This document shows, in pieces, positions 2,531 through 55,218 of a stretch of 64,000 nt of DNA. Under the pieces are notes generated by a model that ran no database searches, was not told the DNA's origin, and saw only the letters and a program-made list of their open reading frames with translations. This DNA comes from Candidatus Methylomirabilia bacterium (GTDB taxonomy: Bacteria > Methylomirabilota > Methylomirabilia > Rokubacteriales > CSP1-6): assembly GCA_041493605.1 (NCBI GenBank), contig JBGPZD010000001.1:5936-69935 (forward strand), read 5' to 3'. Both the position numbers and the translations under genes were made by a program. Numbering within the stretch: the stretch's first letter is position 1; each line of letters opens with the position of its first letter.

Positions 2531-6000
<3,470 letters not shown>

Positions 6001-6022
6001 CGATTTCCGCTCCCATGGGACG

Positions 6023-7117
6023 TCAAATCCTCATGGGCATAATAACACAGAGCGCACCGTCTTCCTCGAAGCTTTTGATCACTCCGGGACTCAATCCATC
6101 CTTTACTTCGAGAATGATCTGCTCGCCCGTCTGCGCTCCGAGCGCGTCCAGCACATAGCGGGAATTGAATCCGATCGTGATCTCCTCGCCGGCGTATTGA
6201 ATCTCAACCTGCTCCTCGGCCTCCCCGAAATCCGGGCTGTACGCGGTCATTTTCAGGACGCCCGATGACAGAACGAACTTGACCGGCTTCGTGCGCTCCT
6301 CCGAGAGCACCGAGACCCGCCGTAGCGCCGCCGTCAGCGCCCCTCGCGCGATCGTGATGCGGTGCGGGTGCGCCTTCGGGACAACCTGCTCGTAATTCGG
6401 GAACGTCCCTTCGATCAGCCGCGCGATCAGCAGCACATTGGGCATTCGCAGCATGAACTGGTTCTCTCCGACGGTGATCTGGACCTCCTCCCCGGAGCCC
6501 ACAATGCGCGCGATCTCCTGGACGGCCTTCCGAGGCACGATACCGGACACCGCCGGCGCCCCGGCGGGCAGCGCGCGAACCGCCAGCGCCAGCCGGTGCC
6601 CATCGGTCGCGACCAGCCGCAGCTCCGTGTCGCGCACGACAAAGAGCACTCCGTTCAGCGCGTAGCGGCTCTCGTCGTGGGAGATGGCGAAGGTGGTCTG
6701 GGTCAGCATGTCGCGCAACATCTTGCCGTCGACGGTGATCCAGCTGGCCCCGGCCCCGTCGCCCACCGCCGGAAAATCCTCAGGGGTAAGCCCCACGAGC
6801 TTGTAGGACACTCCGCCGCACCGCAGCGCCACCCAGGCGTTCTCCTGGACTTTGAGGGACAGCGGTGCCGCCGGCAACTCCTTGACGATCTCCATGAGCT
6901 TCCGGGCCGATATCGTGATGGCCCCGGCCGCGGCCACCTTGGCCGGCGCCGACACCCGCACCCCGACCTCGAGGTCCGTGGCGGTCATCCGCACCGTGTC
7001 CCCCTGGGCCTCGAGCAGCACGTTGGCCAGGATGGGCAGCGTCTGGCGGGGCTCGACCACGTTGTGTACCATCTGGAGCCCGCGGAGAAACGCATCGCGA
7101 TCCACATGGACTTCCAT
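6023..7117 (-). CDS. dnaN: DNA polymerase III beta sliding clamp
   Basis: Starts MEVHVDRDAFLRGLQMVHNVVE with a GGAGG RBS upstream. ~365 aa, typical DnaN length, ending ...LCVIMPMRI. The track ORF 6023..7372 is extended upstream across the AT-rich intergenic region and is not used. Confidence 0.9.
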   Translation of the reverse strand: MEVHVDRDAFLRGLQMVHNVVEPRQTLPILANVLLEAQGDTVRMTATDLEVGVRVSAPAKVAAAGAITISARKLMEIVKELPAAPLSLKVQENAWVALRCGGVSYKLVGLTPEDFPAVGDGAGASWITVDGKMLRDMLTQTTFAISHDESRYALNGVLFVVRDTELRLVATDGHRLALAVRALPAGAPAVSGIVPRKAVQEIARIVGSGEEVQITVGENQFMLRMPNVLLIARLIEGTFPNYEQVVPKAHPHRITIARGALTAALRRVSVLSEERTKPVKFVLSSGVLKMTAYSPDFGEAEEQVEIQYAGEEITIGFNSRYVLDALGAQTGEQIILEVKDGLSPGVIKSFEEDGALCVIMPMRI

Positions 7118-7283
7118 AAAAGCCTCCGTTATTGAGGTAAGTAAGAAAACATCAAAATCAGTCGTCGTAAGAGGAGGCGGAGGTGTGGGTAGCGCGGAGT
7201 GCGCGGAAACGCATTGAACGGAAGGATGTTGGACGCGCGAAAATTGTGGACAGGATCGTGGATTGAGTGCCGGGCCGCTGGGA
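7118..7283. promoter_or_regulatory. AT-rich dnaA-dnaN intergenic region. Candidate DNA-unwinding element and part of oriC.
   Basis: Strikingly AT-rich run (ccataaaagcctccgttattgaggtaagtaagaaaacatcaaaatcag) in a ~68% GC genome. Degenerate DnaA-box-like TTGTGGACA and TGTGGGTAG are nearby. Confidence 0.45.
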
Positions 7284-8603
7284 TCACAGGTTGATGCTCT
7301 GGGTAAGTGTGTCCAGAGTCTTCTTGAATTTGGGATCTTCGCGGAGCAGCGCCTGGATCTTGTCGACCGCATGGAGAACGGTGGTATGGTCCTTGCCTCC
7401 GAAGGCGCGGCCGATCTCTGCGAGCGACATGTGGGTGAGCTGGCGGGCCAAGTACATGGCGATCTGGCGTGGGAAGGCCACGGCCTTGGTTCGGTTCTTG
7501 GCCCGCATGTCGGAGAGCTTGATGCCGAAGAACTCCGACGCCTTCCGCTGGATGTGCTCCACCGTGATGATGCGTTCTTCCTCCCCCCAGAGATCGGAGA
7601 GGACCTCCTGGGCCAAGTCGACGCTCATCTCGCGGCCGCTGAGCGAGCAGAAGGCAACCATGCGGGTGAGCGACCCCTCGATCTCGCGGATGTTCGCCTT
7701 GATGCGGGACGCGATCAAGTACGCCACGTCGTCGGGCAGACGGACACGCTCGATCTCCGCCTTCTTCTTGAGAATGGCGACGCGCGTCTCGAAGTCGGGG
7801 GGCTGGATGTCTGCGATGAGCCCCCACTCGAAGCGGGAGCGGAGCCGCTCCTCAATCTCGGGGATTTCTTTTGGCGCGGAATCGGACGAGACGACGATTT
7901 GTTTCCGCGCTTCGTAGAGGTCGTTGAAGGTGTGGAAGAACTCCTCCTGGGTGCGTTCCTTCCCCGAGATGAACTGGATGTCGTCGATCAGGAGTAGGTC
8001 GATGGTGCGGTACTTCGCCCGGAATTCCGCGGTGCGGTCGTAGCGGATGGCGTTGATCAGGTCGTTGGTGAACCGCTCCGAGGAGAGGTAGAGGAGCTTC
8101 ATGGTCGGATACAGGCGGGCGATCTGGTGGCCAACGGCGTGCAACAGGTGGGTCTTGCCCAGGCCGACACCGCCGTAGATGAACAGCGGGTTGTAGGCCT
8201 TGGAGGGCAGCTCCGCGACTGCCTGACAAGCCGCCTGGGCGAACTGGTTGGAGTTGCCGACGACGAAGGACTGGAACGTGTAGCGAGAGGACAGGCCCGT
8301 GGCAAGCGCGGCCGGCGCGGATGCGCTGGGCGCGGTTGGCGCGGGCGCGGCGCGCCCCGGCTCACGGTCGAGCTCGATGACGACGCGCGGGGCGCCGCCG
8401 AGCACATCGCGCGCGGCGGCTTCGAGCGCGGCGACGTGGTGCTGGGTCAGCCAGTCGCGCGTGAACTTGTTCGGGGCTGCGACGCGAAGGATATCGCCGT
8501 CGATCGCGGCCAGCCGGCAGGGCCGCAGCCAGGAGTCGAGGGCCGTATCGGGCAGCTTGCCCTCAAGTGTAGCGAGGAGCCGCTGCCACAAGGAGTCAAG
8601 CAT
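7284..8603 (-). CDS. dnaA: Chromosomal replication initiator DnaA
   Basis: 439 aa. AAA+ Walker A GGVGLGKTHLLHA. C-terminal DNA-binding helix-turn-helix region (AFPRQIAMYLARQLTHMSLAEIGRAFGGKDHTTVLHA). Confidence 0.95.
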   Translation of the reverse strand: MLDSLWQRLLATLEGKLPDTALDSWLRPCRLAAIDGDILRVAAPNKFTRDWLTQHHVAALEAAARDVLGGAPRVVIELDREPGRAAPAPTAPSASAPAALATGLSSRYTFQSFVVGNSNQFAQAACQAVAELPSKAYNPLFIYGGVGLGKTHLLHAVGHQIARLYPTMKLLYLSSERFTNDLINAIRYDRTAEFRAKYRTIDLLLIDDIQFISGKERTQEEFFHTFNDLYEARKQIVVSSDSAPKEIPEIEERLRSRFEWGLIADIQPPDFETRVAILKKKAEIERVRLPDDVAYLIASRIKANIREIEGSLTRMVAFCSLSGREMSVDLAQEVLSDLWGEEERIITVEHIQRKASEFFGIKLSDMRAKNRTKAVAFPRQIAMYLARQLTHMSLAEIGRAFGGKDHTTVLHAVDKIQALLREDPKFKKTLDTLTQSINL

Positions 8604-11551: not shown

Positions 11552-12211
11552 GTGCCCGCCCGCCCGCGAGATCCGCTGGAGCCGCTCGCGGCCGCGATCC
11601 GCGCGCTCACGGGGCGGCCGGCCTCGGGCGAGGAGCGCGCGCGCTTCGCGCGCTACCTCGATCTTCTGCTCCAGTGGAACCGCGTTCACCGGATGACGGC
11701 CCTCGACTCGCCGAGGGAAATCGCCCGAAGCCTCTTTCAAGACTCGCTTCTGCTCCTTCCACTTCTGCCCCGGGGACCTCTCAGGATGGTCGACATCGGA
11801 GCCGGGGCCGGGATCCCTGGGGTCCCCCTGCGGATTGTCGAGCCCCGGATCGCCCTGACCCTCATTGAGGCCAAGCGAAAGAGGGTCTCCTTTCTCGCTG
11901 CCCTCAGGCGCGAACTTGGATTGGAGGACATGGAGATTCTGGAGGGCAGAGCGGAAGATATCATCACTCAATTACCTAATTTAATTGGGAGATTCGATGT
12001 TGCTGTCGCGCGCGCGGTAGGCCCAATGCGGAAGCTGCTTCCGGTTGTTGCCGGATACCTGAGGCCAGGCGGGATCTTTTTAGCTCCCGGCCCACCCCAG
12101 CCCCCTGCCGTGCCGCCAGCACATGCCGGCATGTTGAGTCGCTGGGAGCGGGTGCCCTACCCCGCGCTCGGGCTAAGCCGGGTACTGTTTGTGGCCTCCA
12201 AAGAGGCTTGA
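11552..12211 (+). CDS. rsmG: 16S rRNA (guanine527-N7)-methyltransferase RsmG
   Basis: GTG start. SAM-binding motif VDIGAGAGIPGVPL. Canonical position before parAB. Confidence 0.85.
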   Translation: MPARPRDPLEPLAAAIRALTGRPASGEERARFARYLDLLLQWNRVHRMTALDSPREIARSLFQDSLLLLPLLPRGPLRMVDIGAGAGIPGVPLRIVEPRIALTLIEAKRKRVSFLAALRRELGLEDMEILEGRAEDIITQLPNLIGRFDVAVARAVGPMRKLLPVVAGYLRPGGIFLAPGPPQPPAVPPAHAGMLSRWERVPYPALGLSRVLFVASKEA

Positions 12212-12233
12212 AACCAAGCGGATCCTAGGGTAA

Positions 12234-12264
12234 TGTTCCACGTGGAACTGTTCCACGTGGAACA
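12234..12264. promoter_or_regulatory. Two tandem parS-like centromere sites: TGTTCCACGTGGAACt and TGTTCCACGTGGAACA.
   Basis: Each is a perfect 14-bp palindrome, GTTCCACGTGGAAC. Each has one mismatch per half-site to the canonical parS TGTTTCACGTGAAACA. They sit immediately upstream of parA. Confidence 0.75.
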
Positions 12265-12277
12265 CCAAGGGGGGCAA

Positions 12278-13039
12278 GTGGGCCGAATCATTGCGGTTGT
12301 CAACCAGAAGGGCGGAGTGGGCAAGACGACTACCGCGATCAATGTGGCCGCCGGGCTGGCTCTGGCCGAGAAGAAGACCCTCCTCATCGATCTGGACCCT
12401 CAGGGCAATGCGACGACTGGCCTCGGAATCAGCAAGAAGGAAGTCGCCCACACGATTTACCACGTCCTCCTGGAAGGGGTGCCCATCGCCCAGGCCGTCC
12501 GGCCCACCGACCTGAAACTCCTGTCGATCATTCCCTCGGACATCGACTTGGTGGGAGCGGAAATCGAGCTCGTGACGTCCGAGGACCGCGAGCGACGGCT
12601 CAAGCACGCCCTGGGCTCGATATCGAGCCAGTACGATTACATCGTCATCGACTGTCCTCCCTCGCTCAGCCTGCTGACGCTCAATGCCCTCGCCGCGGCG
12701 GATTCGGCGCTCGTGCCCCTCCAGTGCGAGTACTACGCCATGGAAGGGCTGGCGCATATTCTCAGGACGATCACTCTGGTTCGGGAACGCCTCAACCCCG
12801 GCCTCAAGGTGGAAGGTATCGTGCTCACGATGTACGACGGCCGCACAAGCCTTGCGGCCCAAGTCAAGGCCGAGGTGCAGCAGCATCTTGGCGCCCAGGT
12901 TCTGACTACGATCATCCCCCGCAATATCCGACTCACCGAGGCCCCCAGCCACGGTAAGCCGATCATGCTCTACGACCTCCGGTCATCCGGGGCCACGGCG
13001 TATCTCGAACTCACCAAGGAGGTGCTCGCGCATGGCTAA
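12278..13039 (+). CDS. parA: Chromosome partitioning ATPase ParA/Soj
   Basis: GTG start after an AAGGGGGG RBS. Deviant Walker A VVNQKGGVGKTTTAIN. The track ORF start at 12233 lies inside the parS repeats and is probably not used. Confidence 0.85.
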   Translation: MGRIIAVVNQKGGVGKTTTAINVAAGLALAEKKTLLIDLDPQGNATTGLGISKKEVAHTIYHVLLEGVPIAQAVRPTDLKLLSIIPSDIDLVGAEIELVTSEDRERRLKHALGSISSQYDYIVIDCPPSLSLLTLNALAAADSALVPLQCEYYAMEGLAHILRTITLVRERLNPGLKVEGIVLTMYDGRTSLAAQVKAEVQQHLGAQVLTTIIPRNIRLTEAPSHGKPIMLYDLRSSGATAYLELTKEVLAHG

Positions 13040-13880
13040 CCGACACGGACTGGGCCGCGGGCTCGGAGCCCTTCTGTCCTCCACCTCGGAGCCCGATCTC
13101 GCAGGCGCCACCACCGACCTGCCCATCGACTCGATTACTCCAAACCCGAATCAACCAAGAAAAGCCTTTGATGACAAGACCTTACGTGAGCTTTCGGCTT
13201 CTCTTCGCCAGTCCGGAGTTCTTCAGCCCGTAGTTGTCCGGCGCCTCGGGCAAGGCTACCAGCTCGTCGTTGGGGAGCGGCGCTGGCGGGCCGCCAAGAT
13301 GGCGGGGCTCACTCGGATTCCCGCAGTCATTCGCGAAGCCACCGATGCCGAATGTCTCGAGCTGGCCTTGGTCGAGAACCTGCTCCGGGAAGACCTGAAC
13401 CCGATGGAGGAAGCCGAGGCCTACCAGCGGCTCCTGGCTGAGTTCGGCTGGACGCAAGAGGTGCTCGCGCACCGTGTCGGCCGGGACCGCAGCAGCATCG
13501 CCAACTGTTTGCGCCTGCTGAAGCTGCCTGAGCTGATCCAGACCGACCTGCGTGCGGGACGCTTGACGATGGGCCATGCGCGCGCGCTCCTCTCCCTCAC
13601 CTCCCCCGCGGATCAGCTCAAGCTGCGCGAGGAGATCCTGGCTCACTCGTGGTCGGTGCGAACCACGGAGGAGGGCGTTCAGGCCAAGCGCGCCAGGCCC
13701 GCGCGCCGCCAGCTCCGCCGCTCCCCCGAGCTCGCGGCGCTCGAGGACGCCCTCCGCTCGGCTCTGGCGACGCGGGTGCGCCTGATTGGCAACGAGCGCG
13801 CCGGCCGCATCGAGATTGCCTACACGTCTCGGGAGGAGCTGGACCGCCTGGCCGAGCTGATCACGTCCGCGAAGGCGTAG
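13032..13880 (+). CDS. parB: Chromosome partitioning protein ParB/Spo0J
   Basis: ParB box motifs (ITPNPNQPRKAFD, QLVVGERRWRAAKMAG). The HTH region is followed by a dimerisation tail. Overlaps the parA stop. Confidence 0.88.
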   Translation: MANRHGLGRGLGALLSSTSEPDLAGATTDLPIDSITPNPNQPRKAFDDKTLRELSASLRQSGVLQPVVVRRLGQGYQLVVGERRWRAAKMAGLTRIPAVIREATDAECLELALVENLLREDLNPMEEAEAYQRLLAEFGWTQEVLAHRVGRDRSSIANCLRLLKLPELIQTDLRAGRLTMGHARALLSLTSPADQLKLREEILAHSWSVRTTEEGVQAKRARPARRQLRRSPELAALEDALRSALATRVRLIGNERAGRIEIAYTSREELDRLAELITSAKA

Positions 13881-13902
13881 GCTCGGAGACCGGCTGGCGC
13901 GC

Positions 13903-15003
13903 ATGAGTGAGCGGATCGTCGTCGGAATGAGCGGTGGGGTGGACTCTTCGGTCGCGGCAGCGCTGCTCCTCGAGCAGGGCTGCGAGGTGATCGGGATCAC
14001 GCTGCGGGTCTGGCCGTGGCGGGAGCCGGAGGAAGCGACCCGCAAGTTCGGCAGCTGCTGCTCGCCGGAGACCGTGGACGACGCCCGCCAAGTGGCGCGC
14101 CGGCTCGGCATCCCGTACTACCTCCTCAACAGTGAGCGGGAGTTCGACGAGACCGTGATCGCGAACTTCGCCAGCGAGTACGCGGCGGGACGCACGCCGG
14201 TGCCGTGCGTGGTGTGCAACCGCGACGTCAAGTTCGGCTCGCTGCTTCAACGCGCGCGAGCCTGGGACGCGACCGCGGTGGCGACGGGCCACTACGCGCG
14301 GATCACATTTGATGGCGCCTCGGGACGGTATCTGCTCTGGCGTGGCCGAGATCCCCGAAAGGACCAGTCGGACTTTCTGTGGCCGTTGAGCCAGGCCCAG
14401 TTCGCCGCGGCACGGTTTCCCGTGGGCGAACTGACCAAGGAGCAGGTGCGCGCCAAGGCCCGGGCCTTGGGCCTCGTCACCGCCGACAAGCCCGAGAGCC
14501 AGGAGATCTGTTTCATTCCGGACGACGACTATCGAGGGTTTCTCCGGCGGCGCATTCCCGACGCCTTCCGATCGGGGCCGATCGTGGATCGGCAGGGGGC
14601 GGTGCTTGGAGAGCATCGAGGATTGGCGAACTACACCATTGGCCAGCGACGGGGGCTTGGGATCACCGGTGCCCGCCCACGCTACGTCACGGCCCTCGAT
14701 CCGGATCGGAATGCCGTCGTGGTGGGCGCGGCTGAGGAGGTCGAGGTCGGGGAGATCTGGGCCGAGCAGGTTAACTTCATATCGCAGCCGAGCCTTGACG
14801 GACCCTTGGAGGTCGCGGCCAAGATCCGGCATAGCCACACGCCGGCGCCCGCCACCATTGAGCCGGCAGGGCAGGGGCAGGTCCGGGTTCGGTTCGCCGA
14901 AGCCCAGCGAGGCCCGGCTCCGGGCCAGTCCGTCGTCTTCTATCAGGGCGACCTCGTTGTGGGCGGGGGCGTAATTGCCCGCCGCGGGCCCGAAGCCCCT
15001 TGA
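13903..15003 (+). CDS. mnmA: tRNA-specific 2-thiouridylase MnmA
   Basis: PP-loop SGGVDSSVAAALL. Catalytic Cys motifs (CCSPE, PCVVCNRDVKF). Confidence 0.88.
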   Translation: MSERIVVGMSGGVDSSVAAALLLEQGCEVIGITLRVWPWREPEEATRKFGSCCSPETVDDARQVARRLGIPYYLLNSEREFDETVIANFASEYAAGRTPVPCVVCNRDVKFGSLLQRARAWDATAVATGHYARITFDGASGRYLLWRGRDPRKDQSDFLWPLSQAQFAAARFPVGELTKEQVRAKARALGLVTADKPESQEICFIPDDDYRGFLRRRIPDAFRSGPIVDRQGAVLGEHRGLANYTIGQRRGLGITGARPRYVTALDPDRNAVVVGAAEEVEVGEIWAEQVNFISQPSLDGPLEVAAKIRHSHTPAPATIEPAGQGQVRVRFAEAQRGPAPGQSVVFYQGDLVVGGGVIARRGPEAP

Positions 15004-15082
15004 CAGTTTTCGCGGCTGCGTGATACTTCTGTAACGTTTGTTCTTAATTTCACAAAATCTCGTTTAGGCCGGAGAATTCACC

Positions 15083-15649
15083 ATGAGTCGAGTCCTCGCC
15101 ACCGCTGCGCTCTTACTCGCTCTGCTGCCGTCGCTGGCGCTCGCTTCGGAAAGCGGGGGCGGGCTCATCAATCTGGACAAGTCGCTGATCATCCAGATGG
15201 TGAACTTCGGCCTGCTGCTTCTGCTGCTTGGCAAGCTGCTGTATCGCCCGCTGGTCGGCAAGATGGAGGAGCGCGCCTTGGCCATCCGGAAGTCGCTCGA
15301 CGAGGCCCAAGCCGCTCGGGCCGAGGCCCAGCGCGAGCGCGAGGAGCACGCGGCCAAGATCCAGGCCGCGCACGCCGAGGCCCAGGCCATCCGCGCCGCG
15401 GCCCTCAAGGAGGCTGCGGAGGAGCAGCGCCGGCTCGTCGACGCGGCCCGCGCCGAGGCGGGCCGGCTGGTCGAATCGGCCCGCGCCGAGATGACCCAGG
15501 ACGTCCGCCGCGCCAAGCAGGAGCTGCGCCAGGAAGTGAGCGACCTGGTGATCGCGGTGGCGGAGCGCGTGATCAAGAAGAGCCTCCGCGACGAGGACCA
15601 CCGGCGCATCGTCGCCGACGCCATCGCTCGCGTCGAGAAGGTCGGCTAG
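15083..15649 (+). CDS. atpF: F0F1 ATP synthase subunit b
   Basis: N-terminal TM segment followed by a long Ala/Glu/Arg-rich coiled-coil. First gene of the atpFHAGDC block. Confidence 0.8.
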   Translation: MSRVLATAALLLALLPSLALASESGGGLINLDKSLIIQMVNFGLLLLLLGKLLYRPLVGKMEERALAIRKSLDEAQAARAEAQREREEHAAKIQAAHAEAQAIRAAALKEAAEEQRRLVDAARAEAGRLVESARAEMTQDVRRAKQELRQEVSDLVIAVAERVIKKSLRDEDHRRIVADAIARVEKVG

Positions 15650-48907: not shown

Positions 48908-50061
48908 TACTTGACGATCTTGGATTCCAGGAGGGTGACGGGGACCCCGTTGAAGAGCTGGGAGAGGTTGGACACCGCCACGGTGTCGCCGGGCTTGACG
49001 CCCTCGATGATCTCCACCCAGGCGCCCTGGCGGGCCCCGGACTTGACCAGGCGCTCCTCCGCCTTGTTGTCGGCCACGACGAACACCTTGCTGATGCCGA
49101 CGAAGTACACGACGGCCTCGGCCGGGACAAAGGCCACGTCACGGTCCCGGCGCGTGAGGACCGAGCCCTTGGCGAAGAAGCCCGGGCGCAGCCGCACGTC
49201 CGTATTGGGCACCCGCCCCTCGACCGCCAGGCTCCGCGTCTGCACCTCGACGGCGGGCGACACGCGGGTCACTTCGCCGGTGAAGGTCTGACCCGGGTAG
49301 GCCTCGACCGTCAGCTCGATCCGCTGCCCGATCTTGAGATCGGGGGCGAAGCGCTCCGACACCGTGCCCGTGTACTTGAGCGGGTCGAGGGCCACCAGGG
49401 TGTAGACGGCCGTGTTCTCCTTCACGTACTCGCCCGCGTTGATGTGACGCTTGGCGATGAAGCCGCCGAAGGGCGCGCGGATCGTGGTATCGCCGAGCCG
49501 CTTGCGCATGATGCCCAGCATCGCGTCCCGGCGCCTCACCTCGGCCTCGTCCACGGCCACCTGGGCCGCGGCGACGTTGTGCAGGTTGCGGGCGTTGTCG
49601 ACGTCACGGGCCGCGATGAGCTGCTTTTCGTAGAGGGTTTTGTTGCGGTCGAACTCCGACTTGGTCCATTCGACCTGGGAGCGGGAGCGCCCGAGGGCTT
49701 CCTGCGTGGACGCCAGGTCGGCCTCGGCCTGCCGGACGGACAGCTGGAACTCGCGCGCGTCGTATTCCGCGAGCACCTGCCCGGCGCTGACGCGGTCGCC
49801 CAGGTCCACCAGCAGCTTGGCCACGGTGCCGGGCTGCTCGGTCTTGGCAATGGTCTCCTGCCAGGCGACCACGCTGCCAACGGTCTCCACCGCGCGCTGG
49901 ACCTCGCGGCCCTCGGCCCTCGCCACGGTGATCGGCACCGCCTTGACCGCGGGGGCGCCGCCCCGTTGGGCCTGGGGGGCCTGCGCGTCGGACTTTCCGC
50001 AGGCGGCCGCGAGCAGCAACGCCAGGGGCAGGGCGATGAGGGTAACCGGGCGCGGGCCCAT
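48907..50061 (-). CDS. RND efflux periplasmic adaptor (membrane fusion protein, HlyD family), lipoprotein
   Basis: Lipobox LAAACGK. Coiled-coil hairpin and beta-barrel domains. Stop overlaps the RND start. Confidence 0.88.
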   Translation of the reverse strand: MGPRPVTLIALPLALLLAAACGKSDAQAPQAQRGGAPAVKAVPITVARAEGREVQRAVETVGSVVAWQETIAKTEQPGTVAKLLVDLGDRVSAGQVLAEYDAREFQLSVRQAEADLASTQEALGRSRSQVEWTKSEFDRNKTLYEKQLIAARDVDNARNLHNVAAAQVAVDEAEVRRRDAMLGIMRKRLGDTTIRAPFGGFIAKRHINAGEYVKENTAVYTLVALDPLKYTGTVSERFAPDLKIGQRIELTVEAYPGQTFTGEVTRVSPAVEVQTRSLAVEGRVPNTDVRLRPGFFAKGSVLTRRDRDVAFVPAEAVVYFVGISKVFVVADNKAEERLVKSGARQGAWVEIIEGVKPGDTVAVSNLSQLFNGVPVTLLESKIVK

Positions 50062-50140
50062 AGGCCGTCAGTTTACTCTAGGACGGCTCGGGCAGCGAGT
50101 GCTCGACCGCCGCCCGCAGCCTGTCGTAAAATACGAATCC

Positions 50141-50635
50141 ATGGCGATCCAGCGCACTCCGATGACGCGGGCGGGCTACGACCGCCTGAAATCCGAGCTC
50201 GAGCGGCTCAAGAAGCAACGACCGCTCCTCAGCAAGGCCATCGGCGAGGCGCGCGCCCACGGGGACCTGTCCGAGAATGCCGAGTACCACGCCGCGCGTG
50301 AGAAGCAGGGCTTCATCGAGGCGCGCATCAAGGAGCTCGAGGGCAGATTCAGCACCGCCGAGGTGCTCGATCCGCCCACCTCCGGGGACCGGGTGACCTT
50401 CGGCTCCACCGTCAGGCTCGAGGACGAGGCTGGCAAGGAGGCCCGCTATCAAATCGTGGGGTCGGACGAAGCGGACCCGACCCACGGCCGCATCTCGATC
50501 ATGGCGCCCCTGGCCCGCACGCTCATCGGCAAGAGGGTGGGCGATACGGTGGTGGCTGAGCTGCCCGGCGGCAAGAAGACCTTCGAGATCCTGGAGGCGA
50601 ATTTCCCCTGGCCGGAGGACGGCCAGCCGGGCTGA
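50141..50635 (+). CDS. greA: Transcription elongation factor GreA
   Basis: MAIQRTPMTRAGYDRLKSELERLKK ... AHGDLSENAEYHAAREKQGFIEARIKELE. Has a short C-terminal extension. Confidence 0.9.
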   Translation: MAIQRTPMTRAGYDRLKSELERLKKQRPLLSKAIGEARAHGDLSENAEYHAAREKQGFIEARIKELEGRFSTAEVLDPPTSGDRVTFGSTVRLEDEAGKEARYQIVGSDEADPTHGRISIMAPLARTLIGKRVGDTVVAELPGGKKTFEILEANFPWPEDGQPG

Positions 50636-51766
50636 TCAGGACCTCAGCGCTTCGCGCAGCTCCCGCGTGAGGGCTTCGACGGTGCCGCGAGTGCCACCCG
50701 CCAGCTTGGCCTTCCACTCCTTCTCGGTTTCGAAGCGGCGGTCCTTGAGCCGCTCGCCCCAAGGCTTGACGGCGTCGCGGATCGCGTGGAAGTCGAAGGC
50801 GTCGCGCTTGAGCTCCCGGGCGCGGGCCATCACGTCCGGGGCCACGCGGATGAAGGCGCGCAATGCGGCGCCAGTCTTGATCGAGTACTTCCGTCCCGCC
50901 CAAGCCGTCGGGAAGGCGGCGGCCACCGCCTTCATGTAGCTCAGGAAGAAGCGCTTGGCGTTCTGTCGCAGCTCGTTCATGCGCGCGCCGCCGCCGATCT
51001 TCTCCACCGCTTCGAGGAAATCCACGATCTCCTCGGCCAGCGGCGCCTGCGAGACGCGCCCGCGGCCGGTGCCCAGCATCTTGATGTCGCCGTGCAGCGG
51101 CGAGGTCTCGTCCTCGTTGAGCGAGCGGATCACGTCGTGGGCCAGGGCCTGATTGGGGTCGGGGTAGAGCTTGCGGCCCGCGAGGCTCACGATGTGCGAT
51201 GGGTTCAGGCGCGTGTGCTTGGCGTTGATGGTGACGAAGAGCTCCACGATCTGCCGCGCGTCGAGCCGGTCGAAAAGGACGGCGGGCACTTCGATCCCCA
51301 GGTTCTCGCCGGCCTGGGTCAGCGCGTGGAGGGCCAGCAGCCGGTGCTGGCCGTCGAGCACGCGGAGCACGCCGTGCTCCTCCGGGATCTGCAGCAGGCC
51401 CAGGTCGTGCTGGCTCGCCATGGGCGTGAAGGTGAAGCGCTTTTCCGAGGTGATGATGACGGCGCCCGGGATGGCCGGCAGCGTGCCCGCGTCTTTGCAA
51501 TCCCGGTAGTAGCCGACGAGCTCGTCGATCTTGCGCCGGATCACCGGCCGCTGGTAGGCGGTCTCGCTCTCGCCGATGCGCTTCTCGAGGGCCTCCCAGT
51601 TCACGCGCGCCCGGGTCGAGCGCTTCGGCTTGGCGGGTCCGGCCTCGGCGCCCCCGTAGCCCAGCACCTCGAATTTGACGAGGCGGTCGATGTCCTTGGC
51701 CGAGAAGGAGGCCTGGAAGAACTCGACTCCGAACTGCTTCACGCGATGCGCGGGGACCGTGATCAT
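50636..51766 (-). CDS. DGQHR-domain protein (DndB/DpdB-like, ParB/Srx-fold superfamily)
   Basis: 376 aa with the literal DGQHR motif (VLDGQHRLLALHAL) and a DndB-like FVTINAKHTRLNPSHIVSL region. GGAGG RBS. Stop is adjacent to and convergent with greA. No dndACDE or dpdA is nearby. Confidence 0.7.
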   Translation of the reverse strand: MITVPAHRVKQFGVEFFQASFSAKDIDRLVKFEVLGYGGAEAGPAKPKRSTRARVNWEALEKRIGESETAYQRPVIRRKIDELVGYYRDCKDAGTLPAIPGAVIITSEKRFTFTPMASQHDLGLLQIPEEHGVLRVLDGQHRLLALHALTQAGENLGIEVPAVLFDRLDARQIVELFVTINAKHTRLNPSHIVSLAGRKLYPDPNQALAHDVIRSLNEDETSPLHGDIKMLGTGRGRVSQAPLAEEIVDFLEAVEKIGGGARMNELRQNAKRFFLSYMKAVAAAFPTAWAGRKYSIKTGAALRAFIRVAPDVMARARELKRDAFDFHAIRDAVKPWGERLKDRRFETEKEWKAKLAGGTRGTVEALTRELREALRS

Positions 51767-51911
51767 GAACGCCTCCAGCTCGTAGGAGCCAACTGCGAAG
51801 ACCGATCCTAGGCTCGGCTACTCTAATCGAAGCCTAAACGCACGTCAACATTTACGTTTTCGCCGCTTGGCCGACTGGCGCCACCCCTAGATATTGTGCT
51901 CGATCTCTGGC

Positions 51912-51944
51912 TTATCCACAAGATGTGGGTAACCTGTGGATGGA
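51912..51944. promoter_or_regulatory. Ectopic DnaA-box cluster: TTATCCACA (perfect), TGTGGGTAA and TGTGGATGG.
   Basis: cTTATCCACAagaTGTGGGTAAccTGTGGATGG lies in the low-GC region ~150 bp upstream of the DGQHR gene start. The same 9-mer is in the dnaA upstream cluster at 8648..8667. Confidence 0.55.
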
Positions 51945-52171
51945 CAAATCCCTACCAATAGAGGTGGATTCGAGGACATTTGCTGAGCGAGAGCCGGCAA
52001 CCCGAGCGGTTGAATCAAACGGACGCGGCCTTCCCAATCCGGAGAGAAGCGAGAACGGGCGATCGTGCGAAACATTAGGCGCAGTCGGCACACTGGGCGA
52101 AGTCCTATTGCGTTCGGCTCTCTTCGCGCGCGCCCCGGTCATATCGAGGCCTCCACACCGGGCCTCCGCCC

Positions 52172-52199
52172 TTGACGAGACCGACCGGCGGGATATCAT
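52172..52199 (+). promoter_or_regulatory. Candidate sigma70 promoter TTGACG-N16-TATCAT for the membrane-protein/hydrolase operon.
   Basis: Near-consensus hexamers ~45 nt upstream of an AAGGAGG RBS and the ATG at 52249. Confidence 0.4.
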
Positions 52200-52248
52200 C
52201 GTCGCGCCGCGGCAGCGCGAGACGGGACACGAGCGGCAAGGAGGCTCC

Positions 52249-52986
52249 ATGAATCCCGAGGTTTGGAGCGCCATTCAGACGGCCCTCGACGACTACGTCA
52301 AATACCTCTGGCCCATGGCGGTGGCCCTCGCGGGGGTCGGCATCGCCACCATGGCGGCGCTGCAGATGGTCAAGGATCTTTTCCGACTTCAGTGGTATTT
52401 CAACCGGTGGCAGGTCCGCCGCTGGCTCGGCCAGCGGGCCCGGCGCTGCCACGAGCACGACGCGAGCTTTTCGCCCGACGCAGGCTGGGCTCACGTGCAG
52501 CTGATCACGCTGGCGACAGCCGGCGACGAGGACGCCTTCTACTCGCTCGACTGCCAGCAGATCGCGGCCCAGATGGCGGCCGCCTCGCAAATCGCGCTCG
52601 ATTATCCCCGCCTCTACTCCCACCTGTTCCTGTGTCTGGCGGCCGAGGCCGAGCCCGCCGACGTCAGGCGGGTGCTGGGGCCGCCGCCCAGGCCGGCGGC
52701 GAAGGACGCCTGGATCGCGGCCCGGAACCGGGTCGGCCACCAGGTCCAGCGGACGCTGGACGGTCTGCAGATCTCGATCACGAACCGTTGGAAGCGCTCG
52801 AACCAGCTCGTCTCCTACCTGCTCAACGTGCTGTTCGTGATGCTCGCGTTGCGATCCCTCAACGCGCGGCTGACGTCGATGCCGATCGTTGACTCCATGC
52901 TGGTCGCCCTGCTGAGCGGCTTCCTGGCCCCAGTGGCCAAGGACCTCGTGACCGCGCTGCAGCAGCTCCGGTCGCGGGCGCGATGA
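52249..52986 (+). CDS. Membrane protein of unknown function (N-terminal TM, two C-terminal TMs)
   Basis: Strong AAGGAGG RBS. Starts MNPEVWSAIQTALDDYVKYLWPMAVALAGVGIATMAAL. C-terminal LVSYLLNVLFVMLAL and SMLVALLSGFLAP helices. The track ORF 51925..52986 is extended upstream. Confidence 0.6.
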   Translation: MNPEVWSAIQTALDDYVKYLWPMAVALAGVGIATMAALQMVKDLFRLQWYFNRWQVRRWLGQRARRCHEHDASFSPDAGWAHVQLITLATAGDEDAFYSLDCQQIAAQMAAASQIALDYPRLYSHLFLCLAAEAEPADVRRVLGPPPRPAAKDAWIAARNRVGHQVQRTLDGLQISITNRWKRSNQLVSYLLNVLFVMLALRSLNARLTSMPIVDSMLVALLSGFLAPVAKDLVTALQQLRSRAR

Positions 52987-53864
52987 ACCCGGAGACCTGG
53001 CATGAGCTGAGCGTCCGCACCCTCCCGGTCGGCGGTCCCGTGGCCCCCGAGGTGGCCGAGGGGCCGCCCCTCTTCGTCCAGGGGCGGAGCCGCCTCGTCG
53101 TTTTCGTCCACGGGTACAACAACACCCTGTCGGTCGCCCGCGGATACTACACGGTGTTCGGCGGGCACCTCCAGGACGCGTATTCCGACGGGGGGCCGCT
53201 GGTGCCGGATCTGCTGGCGAAGTTTCACTGGCCCGGCGACGCCGGCCTGGGACCTATCTCGTTCATCAGTTACCCATTCGAGATCGAAGACGCCGAGAAT
53301 TCGGCGAAGAAGCTGGCCGGCTTCCTGCGCGGTCTCCGGGGTCCCGGGGGCGCGCCGATGCAGCTCGACATCGTGGCCGCGTCGCTCGGCTGCCGCGTCC
53401 TGCTCGAGACGATCCACGAGCTCTTGCCCACCCTCCAGCAGCTCGCGGTCCATTTTGGCGTGGTCTGCCTCATGGCCGCCGCGGTGCCGGTTGACATGAT
53501 GGACCCGGGCGAGCGGCTCGAGGGCACCTTGGAGGCGCCGCGGCGGCTTCTGGTGCTGCACTCGACGGGGGACCGCGTGCTCCACTACGCCTTCCCGCTC
53601 GGCCAGACCGCCGCCGGCGAAGGGTTCTTCCCCACCGCGCTCGGCCGCTTTGGCCCGCCGCCCTGGGCGCCGGGCGAGCACGTGCCGGTGGACGAGCTCG
53701 ACCACGGCGAGTACTGGGGCGCCGAGGTCTCCGCGTATGAGATCGCGAAGCGGCTCGGCCTGGGCCCGGTCCGCGAGCGCGTCCCGGCGCGCTCGCTGCC
53801 GCGCTATGACACGCCGGCCCGCGATCTGCCCACGCGAGACCTCCCGAATTACCAAGGGCCCTGA
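52983..53864 (+). CDS. Alpha/beta-hydrolase, DUF900-like (putative esterase/lipase), cytoplasmic
   Basis: ATGA overlap with the upstream gene. [19 protein letters not shown]. Nucleophile elbow-like [21 protein letters not shown]. No signal peptide. Starts MNPETW, like its upstream partner. Confidence 0.6.
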
Positions 53865-53878
53865 TCAAGGAGCGAGAC

Positions 53879-54331
53879 ATGGCCGGCAAGCTGTTCGAGG
53901 AATTGACGGTGGGCCAGGTGTTCCAGCATCAACCGGGCCGCACCATCACCGAGGCGGACAACGTGTTTTTCTCCTGCCTCACCATGAATCCGCAGCCGCT
54001 GCACGTGGACTTCCACGCGGCGCAGCAGGCCGAGTTCGGCAAGCCGCTGGTCAACAGCCTGCTCACCCTGGGCGTGGCCGTCGGATTGAGCGTCGGCGAC
54101 ACCACGCTCGGCACCACGGTGGGCAACCTGGGGTTCGAGAAGATCGAATTCCCCAAGCCGGTCTTCCACGGCGACACCATCTATTCGGAGACCGAGGTCG
54201 TGGACAAGCGCGAGTCCCGGTCGCGCCCCCAGTGGGGCATCGTGACCTTCGAGCACCGGGCGAAGAATCAGCGCGGGGAGCTGGTGATGAGCTGCCGCCG
54301 CGCGGCCATGATGCGCCGGCGGGCCGCCTAG
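53879..54331 (+). CDS. MaoC-like (R)-specific enoyl-CoA hydratase/dehydratase
   Basis: Hot-dog fold motifs ([31 protein letters not shown]). Confidence 0.8.
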
Positions 54332-54333
54332 TC

Positions 54334-55218
54334 ATGCGGCGCTCACTGCACTTCGTTCCCGGCGGCAACGAGAAGATGATCGCGAAGGCCCTGACACTGC
54401 CGGCGGACGGGCTGATCCTCGACCTCGAGGACGCCGTGACGCCCGACAAGAAGGCGGCGACTCGCCCCGTCGTGAGGCGGTGGCTGGAGACGCTCGATTT
54501 CGGGAAGCGGGAGCGGTGGGTGAGGATGAACCCCATTGTCGGCGAGTACGGCGAGGCCGACCTCGAAGAGACCATCGCGGGACGCCCCGACGGCTACGTG
54601 GTCCCCAAACCGCGCCGGGCCGAGGACATCCGGCGCATCGCCGCCATTCTCGACCGGCTCGAGCAGAAACACGGGCTGCGGTTCGGGTCCACGCGGCTTC
54701 AGCTCATCGCCACCGAGACTCCCGAGGGTCTGCTGAACATCGCCGAGGTGGCGGCCGCCAGCCCGCGGATCGCCGCGATCTCCTGGGGGATCGAGGATCT
54801 CTCGGCGGCCATGGGGCTGCCGCGGACGCGCGACGCCGAAGGCCGCTACCTCGACATCCCGCGCTATGCCCGGGTCATGTGCGCCGTCGCGGCGTCAGCG
54901 GCGGCAGTGGACGCCATCGACACCGTGTACACGGACTTCAGGGACCTGGACGGGCTCCGGCGCGAGTGCCGCGAGGCGGTGGCCATGGGCTTCGCCGGCA
55001 AGATCTCGATCCACCCGGGGCAGATCGAGGTCATCAACGAGGAGTTCACGCCGTCGCGCGCCGAGGCCGAGGAGGCCGTGGCCCTCATCGCCGCTTTCGA
55101 GGAACACGCCAGACGGGGGGCGGGCGCCTTCGCGTGGAAGGGGCAGATGATGGACATGCCCCATCTCACGCGTGCGCGCAAGATCGCCGAGCGCGCGCGC
55201 GGCGCGGGCGCGCTCTAG
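54334..55218 (+). CDS. HpcH/HpaI aldolase / citrate lyase beta-subunit (CitE)-like CoA-ester lyase
   Basis: RRSLHFVPGGNEKMIAKALTLPADGLILDLEDAV ... ISWGIEDLSAAMG ... typical CitE/malyl-CoA lyase family. Confidence 0.8.
   Translation: MRRSLHFVPGGNEKMIAKALTLPADGLILDLEDAVTPDKKAATRPVVRRWLETLDFGKRERWVRMNPIVGEYGEADLEETIAGRPDGYVVPKPRRAEDIRRIAAILDRLEQKHGLRFGSTRLQLIATETPEGLLNIAEVAAASPRIAAISWGIEDLSAAMGLPRTRDAEGRYLDIPRYARVMCAVAASAAAVDAIDTVYTDFRDLDGLRRECREAVAMGFAGKISIHPGQIEVINEEFTPSRAEAEEAVALIAAFEEHARRGAGAFAWKGQMMDMPHLTRARKIAERARGAGAL

Follow-up and report, generated by a model that had tools for sequence, protein, structure and literature searches.

The contig JBGPZD010000001.1 of a Candidatus Methylomirabilia bacterium (assembly GCA_041493605.1) carries, within the 64,000 nucleotides (nt) analyzed here and referred to below as the window, two overlapping genes, A and B, predicted to encode a membrane protein and a serine hydrolase. 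The question raised by this locus is whether the two genes form a functional unit of their own and, if so, what such a unit might do. An interpretation of the window made from its letters without database searches (the sequence-only reading) had described them as a translationally coupled pair belonging to no recognizable named system, and no paper describing the A–B pair was found in the literature. As a result of homology searches started from either gene, the A–B pairing proved to be strongly conserved across phyla and near-obligate for B, and the pair is widespread in soil bacteria.

The genomic association of the two genes was evaluated from both sides. The best 80 of 412 metagenome relatives of B, together with three contigs of the IMG/VR database that carry the pair, were examined and gave 77 evaluable B-centered loci. 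In the overwhelming majority of these loci (74/77), A is the immediately preceding gene on the same strand; in two more A is found 0.2–0.6 kb upstream, and a single locus has no A. The A-centered scan covered approximately 185,600 species representatives (one genome per species) with a single peptide pattern, and its counts are lower bounds. It returned 35 loci, all in metagenome-assembled genomes, from at least five phyla (Methylomirabilota, Acidobacteriota, Gemmatimonadota, Proteobacteria, and Bacteroidetes), and B is located directly 3′ of A in 25 of these genomes. Look-ups on long contigs, three begun from B and three from A, found the pair in all six additional cases. The distance between the stop codon of A and the start codon of B varies between −8 and +14 nt, the most common value being the −4 observed in the window (23/77 pairs). 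The divergence of the two proteins is likewise coordinated: for 78 pairs, the distance matrices of A and B are correlated with a Mantel r of 0.886 (permutation maximum of 0.15), and the mean pairwise identities are nearly equal (0.38 for A and 0.395 for B). The sequence-only reading had itself named unlinked housekeeping homologs as the observation that would speak against a dedicated pair; since the pairing is conserved across phyla, this objection fails.

Protein B passes the gathering cut-off of the Pfam family PF05990 (DUF900) with 30.8 bits versus 20.5 (E-value of 2.5e-7, residues 35–202), and a precomputed match to this family exists for most B homologs. The AlphaFold2 (AF2) model of B, with a predicted local distance difference test (pLDDT) score of 92, displays the alternating strands and helices of the α/β-hydrolase topology. 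The protein contains the motifs FVHGYNN, AASLG, and HSTGD, and His43-Gly44 (in HGYNN), Ser134, Asp197, and His241 are invariant in the alignment of 67 homologs. By modeled fold and alignment, B is a serine hydrolase of the α/β-hydrolase type with a predicted Ser134/Asp197/His241 triad, as had been proposed. The nucleophile elbow has the form [AGCST]HS[LM]G in 117 of 120 members of the B family, and the sequence profile of B gives weak matches to Bacillus lipase A and to pancreatic-lipase-related proteins. Having no hydrophobic N-terminus, B is predicted to be cytoplasmic. None of the PADLOC models matches it at E-values up to 1.

For protein A, hydropathy, the AF2 model, and the distribution of basic residues agree on one N-terminal and two C-terminal transmembrane (TM) helices enclosing a cytoplasmic middle part, in line with the sequence-only reading. 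The model is all-helical, with a pLDDT of 87 for the whole protein and >95 within residues 50–180, and contains long helices at residues 149–205 and 213–244. In the alignment of A homologs, the TM1 segment GxxxMAxxQxxKD is nearly invariant; the helical domain of approximately 140 amino acids (aa) between TM1 and TM2 and the C-terminal helix (FLAPVA[KR]DLVxALQQLR) are conserved as well. Basic residues are clustered after TM1 and before TM2, and some A homologs possess a signal peptide and an extra N-terminal domain of about 120–150 aa ahead of TM1. Because of these two features, the middle domain and the C-terminal helix are assigned to the cytoplasm, and the predicted topology is that of three TM helices with the N-terminus outside and the C-terminus inside. 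No family at E-values up to 1 was found for A in Pfam, NCBIfam, or PADLOC, and the search for PDB sequence-profile matches gave none (best E-value of 0.6). Foldseek detected no fold match either (best E-values of 1.0 in PDB and 0.2 in BFVD), and the extended homologs P0034, P0043, P0190, P0213, P0274, and P0295 contain no Pfam domain. The family is nonetheless large: a profile search recovered 1,417 clusters at 50% identity, 1,089 of them at E-values of 1e-10 or lower. A represents a large, unnamed family that is covered by no library, and the absence of a recognizable named system, as stated in the sequence-only reading, holds for both genes. No fusion of A and B occurs in either list of homologs.

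The gene layout likewise agrees with what had been read from the sequence (Table 1): the lengths and the ATGA overlap of the two genes, the near-consensus promoter-like site and strong ribosome-binding site in front of A, and the divergent orientation of the pair relative to the DGQHR gene were all recovered. Both genes are real, as indicated by a GC content at third codon positions (GC3) of 0.90 and by homolog matches with E-values down to 1e-150 for A and 1e-181 for B. Promoter-type sites were seen twice versus 0.1 expected in shuffled sequence, and the putative promoter is located within the first bases of the block that is conserved between strains (see below). No obvious ribosome-binding site was seen directly in front of B, in agreement with translational coupling to A. 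The stop codon of B is followed after 14 nt (53864–53879) by the start of a MaoC-dehydratase gene, which has its own AAGGAG; since no terminator-like site is present between them, transcription from the cassette promoter may run on into the MaoC/HpcH operon. A scan of positions 50000–55000 against Rfam identified no credible RNA element.

Table 1. Positions of the genes, signals, and predicted functional sites of the A–B locus in the window.
Feature	Coordinates	Strand	Basis and remarks
Cassette (promoter, gene A, gene B)	52169–53867	+	Block 52169–53864 conserved between strains; both edges are indel junctions
Sigma-70-like promoter, TTGACG-16-TATCAT (putative)	52172–52199	+	10/12 positions; consensus match alone
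Shine-Dalgarno sequence, AAGGAGG	52238–52244	+	4 nt ahead of the gene A ATG; read from sequence
Gene A	ATG 52249 – TGA 52986	+	245 aa; predicted all-helical membrane protein, family unnamed
A, predicted TM1 (residues 20–41)	52306–52371	+	Kyte-Doolittle window >1.6
A, predicted TM2–TM3 hairpin (residues 186–231)	52804–52941	+	Hydropathy; segments 186–205 and 208–231
ATGA overlap	52983–52986	+	Start of B overlaps stop of A
Gene B	ATG 52983 – TGA 53864	+	293 aa; DUF900 α/β hydrolase, lipase-like type, predicted cytoplasmic
B, predicted nucleophile Ser134 codon	53382–53384	+	AASLG, with [AGC]HSLG in the family; invariant column
B, predicted catalytic Asp197 codon	53571–53573	+	HSTGD; invariant column
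B, predicted catalytic His241 codon	53703–53705	+	HGEYW; invariant column
DGQHR gene	50636–51766	−	TIGR03187, E 1.4e-34; divergent from the pair

Two of the cues that had flagged the locus, a hexapeptide shared by the N-termini of both proteins and a low GC content, turned out to be uninformative. Protein A starts with MNPEVW and B with MNPETW, and the coding DNA is identical at 13 of 18 positions, so that the shared starts and the differing DNA stand as described. The suggested protein-level feature does not, being lost below approximately 77% identity. Orthologs with at least 77% identity start with MNPEVW, MNPQVW, or MDPEVW (A) and with MNPETW, MIPETW, or MTPETW (B). Cognate pairs at 50–63% identity have the A/B starts MEMNIW/MTLETW, MNAAGMEIW/MNRETG, and MNPWEAIQ/MPGSVRVV, contrary to the idea that the hexapeptide is conserved in orthologs, and the N-termini of more distant pairs have no resemblance at all. 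A match in four of five positions occurs in four of about 22,550 non-cognate combinations of A and B (1.8e-4; analytic estimate of 1.1e-4). With its occurrence limited to close orthologs and a chance rate of this order per pair, MNPE[VT]W was rejected as a shared signal; judged by these N-termini, the hexapeptide appears to be a coincidence of the kind expected occasionally in a genome-wide scan and no property of the system. With respect to composition, the pair had been placed in a region of about 55% GC, whereas its GC content is 69.7% (67.8% for A and 71.1% for B) versus 68.2% for the window. The sole part with a lower value is the intergenic spacer of 482 nt (60.4%).

The boundaries of the locus were defined by a blastn comparison with four strains of the same species, L129 (GCA_964421885.1, 96–97% identity), L049, L050, and L051 (94–97% for the whole set). 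Homology between the strains is interrupted twice, from 52003–52006 to 52169–52171 and from 53864 to 53868. The spacer at 52006–52169 is replaced by an unrelated segment of 84 nt in L129 and by 1.1 kb in L050 and L051 (L050 3191–4292), the latter encoding on the minus strand a UPF0016/GDT1-like membrane protein with a repeated MGDKTQL motif. On the other side, L049 and L050 have 77 extra bases between the stop codon of B and the MaoC gene; the window has 3 nt at this junction.

Another variable site adjoins the divergent DGQHR gene, which weakly matches the DpdB/DndB models of PADLOC. In the window, the orphan DGQHR (DndB/DpdB-like) gene and GreA meet with their 3′ ends at 50626–50646. L129 has 2.56 kb inserted between these two genes (5917–8481), coding for a C5 DNA methylase and a glycosylase-like protein of the HhH-GPD type. 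The GreA/DGQHR junction looks like a strain-variable spot for DNA modification or defense, and its surroundings lack further dnd or dpd genes. The adjacency of the DGQHR gene and the pair is confined to the species of the window, and no unit combining the pair with Dnd or Dpd genes was found among 36 loci.

The genomic contexts of the pair are heterogeneous, a few being defense-like or mobile and most being neither. In one island (L036), the pair is accompanied by integrases, a transposase, and an AAA_15/DUF2813 (OLD-like) gene, and an nSTAND/TCAD9 protein is encoded directly downstream of it. In a Mu-like prophage (L043 and L044), GmrSD_N and AAA_15/DUF3696 genes are found next to the pair; in L043 (IMG/VR UViG_3300012869_000006, positions 122–2418 and 12100–15219), the pair, the GmrSD_N protein, and the AAA_15/DUF3696 ATPase are encoded on the same strand within approximately 4 kb, which looks like a prophage defense hotspot. 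Portal_Mu and a Mu F protein fused to a PBECR2 nuclease are encoded on the same contig. At L133, the pair is flanked by an integrase and located behind the L21/L27/Obg cluster. Other loci have ordinary metabolic, regulatory, or envelope genes as neighbors. Among 148 non-redundant neighbors (within three genes on either side, on short contigs, without a matched control), 172 Pfam families were identified, none of them in more than two neighbors; no secretion-system family recurs, and matches to PADLOC are scattered and belong mostly to generic kinases. There is no conserved third gene: besides A and B, every family is limited to at most 6 of 36 loci, those that recur being proteins X and Y, described below, and cases of clade-specific synteny.

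Several single loci deserve mention. One Gemmatimonadaceae genome has two separate A–B pairs on different contigs (L028 and L034). In a Terriglobia locus (L035, 9977–12665), two tandem copies of A precede B, both of them frameshifted, possibly owing to long-read assembly errors. Among cultivated organisms, the pair was found once, in a distant A–B-like form on plasmid pSfreNXT3a of Sinorhizobium fredii NXT3 (L130, 40675–51388), with the A-like gene 3 nt upstream of the B-like hydrolase gene. Its neighbors include a C1 family peptidase containing a B-like hydrolase segment (residues 497–559), a peptidoglycan-binding protein, and an IS66 element. In seven acidobacterial loci (among them L019 4395–5870, L064, L083, L087, L089, and L131 6878–8422), the pair has nearby a gene for a protein, Z, of 500–600 aa with a signal peptide and a C-terminus ending in GISYxxxSLF that resembles that of an outer-membrane barrel; it has no Pfam match.

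The reading that we propose, tentatively and as something short of an even chance, is that the pair is an autonomous accessory cassette in which A tethers and gates the lipase-like B at the inner membrane. The two-gene cassette with its own promoter would relocate between genomic sites and lineages, and A and B would be made in coupled, roughly equal amounts. Protein A would bind B, retain it on the cytoplasmic side of the membrane, and control its access to an ester substrate, most probably an acyl ester of a membrane phospholipid. The role of such a module would be accessory, in conflict or envelope stress, and not in core metabolism. A stoichiometric membrane complex is suggested by the coupled synthesis, the linkage, and the equal-rate co-divergence of the two proteins, combined with the predicted cytoplasmic domain of A, the predicted triad of B in a protein without a signal, and the apparent relocation of the cassette. 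A lipid acyl ester as substrate is suggested by the type of the elbow, by the weak similarity to lipases, and by the precedent of the phospholipase cinquedea (see below). The patchy hosts, the variable neighbors, the indel edges, the instances in a prophage and beside integrases, and the genome with two copies point to an accessory character.

A number of observations weigh against this proposal. The contact between A and B, the gating of B by A, and the lipid substrate are inferences from indirect evidence. Nine of the 35 A-centered genomes lack B, and the contig of a tenth (L020) stops directly behind A. Six Terriglobia genomes (L005 7653–10702, L013, L018, L024, L026, and L027) have A as the last gene of an X-Y-A operon, in which X is a protein of about 220 aa with invariant Cys37 and His178 (a family of 16 proteins) and Y is a secreted protein of 420–520 aa with a low-complexity linker. 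Neither X nor Y has a Pfam match; X gives a faint hint of Peptidase_C39_2 (E-value of 0.075) and no PDB match. Since A is found without B, its function cannot consist solely in serving B: of the two, A has the wider use as a module, with B as its by far commonest but not its sole partner. With respect to B, the near-invariant His of the elbow is replaced by Ala at codon 133 (53379–53381), next to the nucleophile, in a lineage-specific manner in the species of the window and its closest relatives; the Ser is retained. Foldseek matches of B to esterases, lipases, and phospholipase-type domains have probabilities of about 1 and are all generic, with TM-scores below 0.5, and DUF900 is a family without assigned function (PMC11878206). 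The neighborhoods show no consistent enrichment in defense genes, and A was found neither in 72,556 plasmid records nor in 50,697 phage records (the latter searched by tblastn). Finally, the host-like GC and GC3 of the pair do not point to a recent transfer in the genome studied here.

The last of these points, along with the lack of a general association with defense and the slow evolution of A and B at equal rates, favors a role of the pair in envelope or lipid homeostasis outside any conflict. Here, B would be a membrane-associated esterase, lysophospholipase, or lipid or lipoprotein deacylase, and A would be its adaptor, both acting under particular soil conditions. The constitutive-looking promoter agrees with such a role, as do some neighbors related to lipids or the envelope, namely PagL, a ceramidase with a patatin, LpxB, the secreted or outer-membrane-like proteins Y and Z, and the peptidoglycan-binding protein of S. 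fredii. However, a homeostatic function would be expected neither from a strain-variable locus with no conserved synteny with any pathway nor from an occurrence as sparse and patchy as 35 of about 185,600 species representatives, even when this count is taken as a lower bound. We consider this explanation doubtful.

The same patchy distribution, combined with the occasional defense, prophage, and mobile contexts, favors a role in conflict, and a defense role for the pair is possible. In an anti-phage or abortive-infection system, A would either sense a cue from the envelope or from infection or serve as the membrane effector itself, and would release a phospholipase-type B, whose damage to the membrane would abort the infection. 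The pair of the window is located in a strain-variable spot beside an orphan DGQHR gene, where the sister strain adds a C5 DNA methylase and an HhH-GPD gene, and the island L036 and the prophage L043/L044 place other pairs next to defense-type genes. Precedents exist for latent α/β-hydrolase death effectors (PMC12642450) and for an anti-T7 system composed of a hydrolase and a membrane protein (PMC9122126). Against this stand the lack of PADLOC matches for A and B and their scarcity among the 148 neighbors, the many loci flanked by housekeeping genes, and the absence of A from the sequenced plasmids and phages searched, which leave the anti-phage explanation rather unlikely. Its most far-reaching form is distinctly unlikely. 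It holds that the pair is a widespread, hitherto undescribed two-component system of soil bacteria for membrane defense or abortive infection. A family of three-helix A proteins, some of them extended by a periplasmic sensor, would gate a cytoplasmic DUF900 phospholipase, and infection or envelope attack would cause this enzyme to destroy the inner membrane. The A module would be reusable with other enzymes, as in X-Y-A with its Cys/His peptidase-like protein.

An improbable explanation is that of a toxin-antitoxin or effector-immunity pair, in which B would be a toxic lipase and A its cognate neutralizer, used for addiction or for competition between bacteria. The position of A as the upstream coupled partner fits an antitoxin-first order, co-inheritance is strict, and the lipase Tle1 of the type VI secretion system is among the weak Foldseek matches of B. 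Nonetheless, B has no signal peptide or secretion marker (DUF900 being its sole Pfam domain), and no secretion-system family recurs in its neighborhoods; immunity proteins against lipase effectors are periplasmic, whereas the conserved domain of A is predicted to be cytoplasmic; and A, unlike a typical immunity protein, is conserved as much as B and occurs without it.

A lipase with a membrane-anchored foldase of the LipA–Lif type, or a phage lysis cassette of a three-helix holin and a LysB-like esterase, is very improbable. An all-helical, membrane-anchored A does adjoin a lipase-like enzyme, its three helices, N-out/C-in topology, and charged C-terminus recall class I holins, and three IMG/VR contigs carry the pair. 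However, B lacks a signal peptide, A precedes the hydrolase gene whereas lif follows lipA, the helical domain of A is cytoplasmic by prediction, and A gives no match to Pfam Lipase_chap. With 245 aa, about 140 of which form a conserved soluble domain, A is also unlike holins; it has no match in the 50,697 phage records and no fold match in BFVD, and the L043 pair stands beside defense-type genes and in no recognizable lysis module.

If the proposed tethering and gating of B by A is true, it would provide the first functional handle on DUF900 and would give a name to a large membrane family that is missing from the libraries and found mostly in uncultured Acidobacteriota, Methylomirabilota, and Gemmatimonadota. 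A membrane-gated cytoplasmic lipase would also join the known ways of controlling self-damaging enzymes. Even without a function, the near-obligate linkage of A to B represents a clean and testable prediction of a physical complex.

Four known systems invite comparison with the pair. In the LipA–Lif/LipH operons of Pseudomonas and Burkholderia, the periplasmic Lif, a member of the Pfam family Lipase_chap, is encoded downstream of the lipase. Both layouts translationally couple a lipase-like enzyme to an all-helical, membrane-anchored partner. They differ in that A is encoded upstream, is predicted to face the cytoplasm, and has no Lipase_chap match, and in that B lacks a signal peptide.

The anti-T7 system Rst_Hydrolase-3TM of P4-like satellites consists of a haloacid dehalogenase (HAD)-like hydrolase and a transmembrane protein (PMC9122126). 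It resembles the A–B pair in combining a hydrolase with a multi-pass membrane protein in two genes at mobile or variable loci, an analogy of layout alone. Its hydrolase is of the HAD type, whereas B is of the α/β type, and the PADLOC models, searched at E-values up to 1, match neither A nor B. The likeness to LcHydrolase, one of the protease-activated α/β-hydrolase death effectors found with LcCaspase in defense modules (PMC12642450), was assessed by description and concerns the enzyme: a cytoplasmic α/β hydrolase with lipase-like remote homology that is kept latent by a dedicated partner gene. In those modules, sensors are fused to a partner protease of the caspase-like or trypsin-like kind, whereas the partner of B is a membrane protein with three predicted TM helices.

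The fourth system, cinquedea, is a secreted phospholipase A of Haloferax larsenii that forms a single-gene unit, and 69% of its archaeal homologs carry DUF900 (bioRxiv 10.64898/2026.06.10.730825). In contrast to this secreted enzyme encoded by one gene, B is predicted to be cytoplasmic and is almost always preceded by gene A. Cinquedea is the only characterized enzyme whose homologs mostly carry DUF900, and, compared by description, it shares with B, itself a DUF900 protein, the α/β fold, a Ser-Asp-His triad, predicted in the case of B, and a lipase-type elbow of the form [AG]HSxG.

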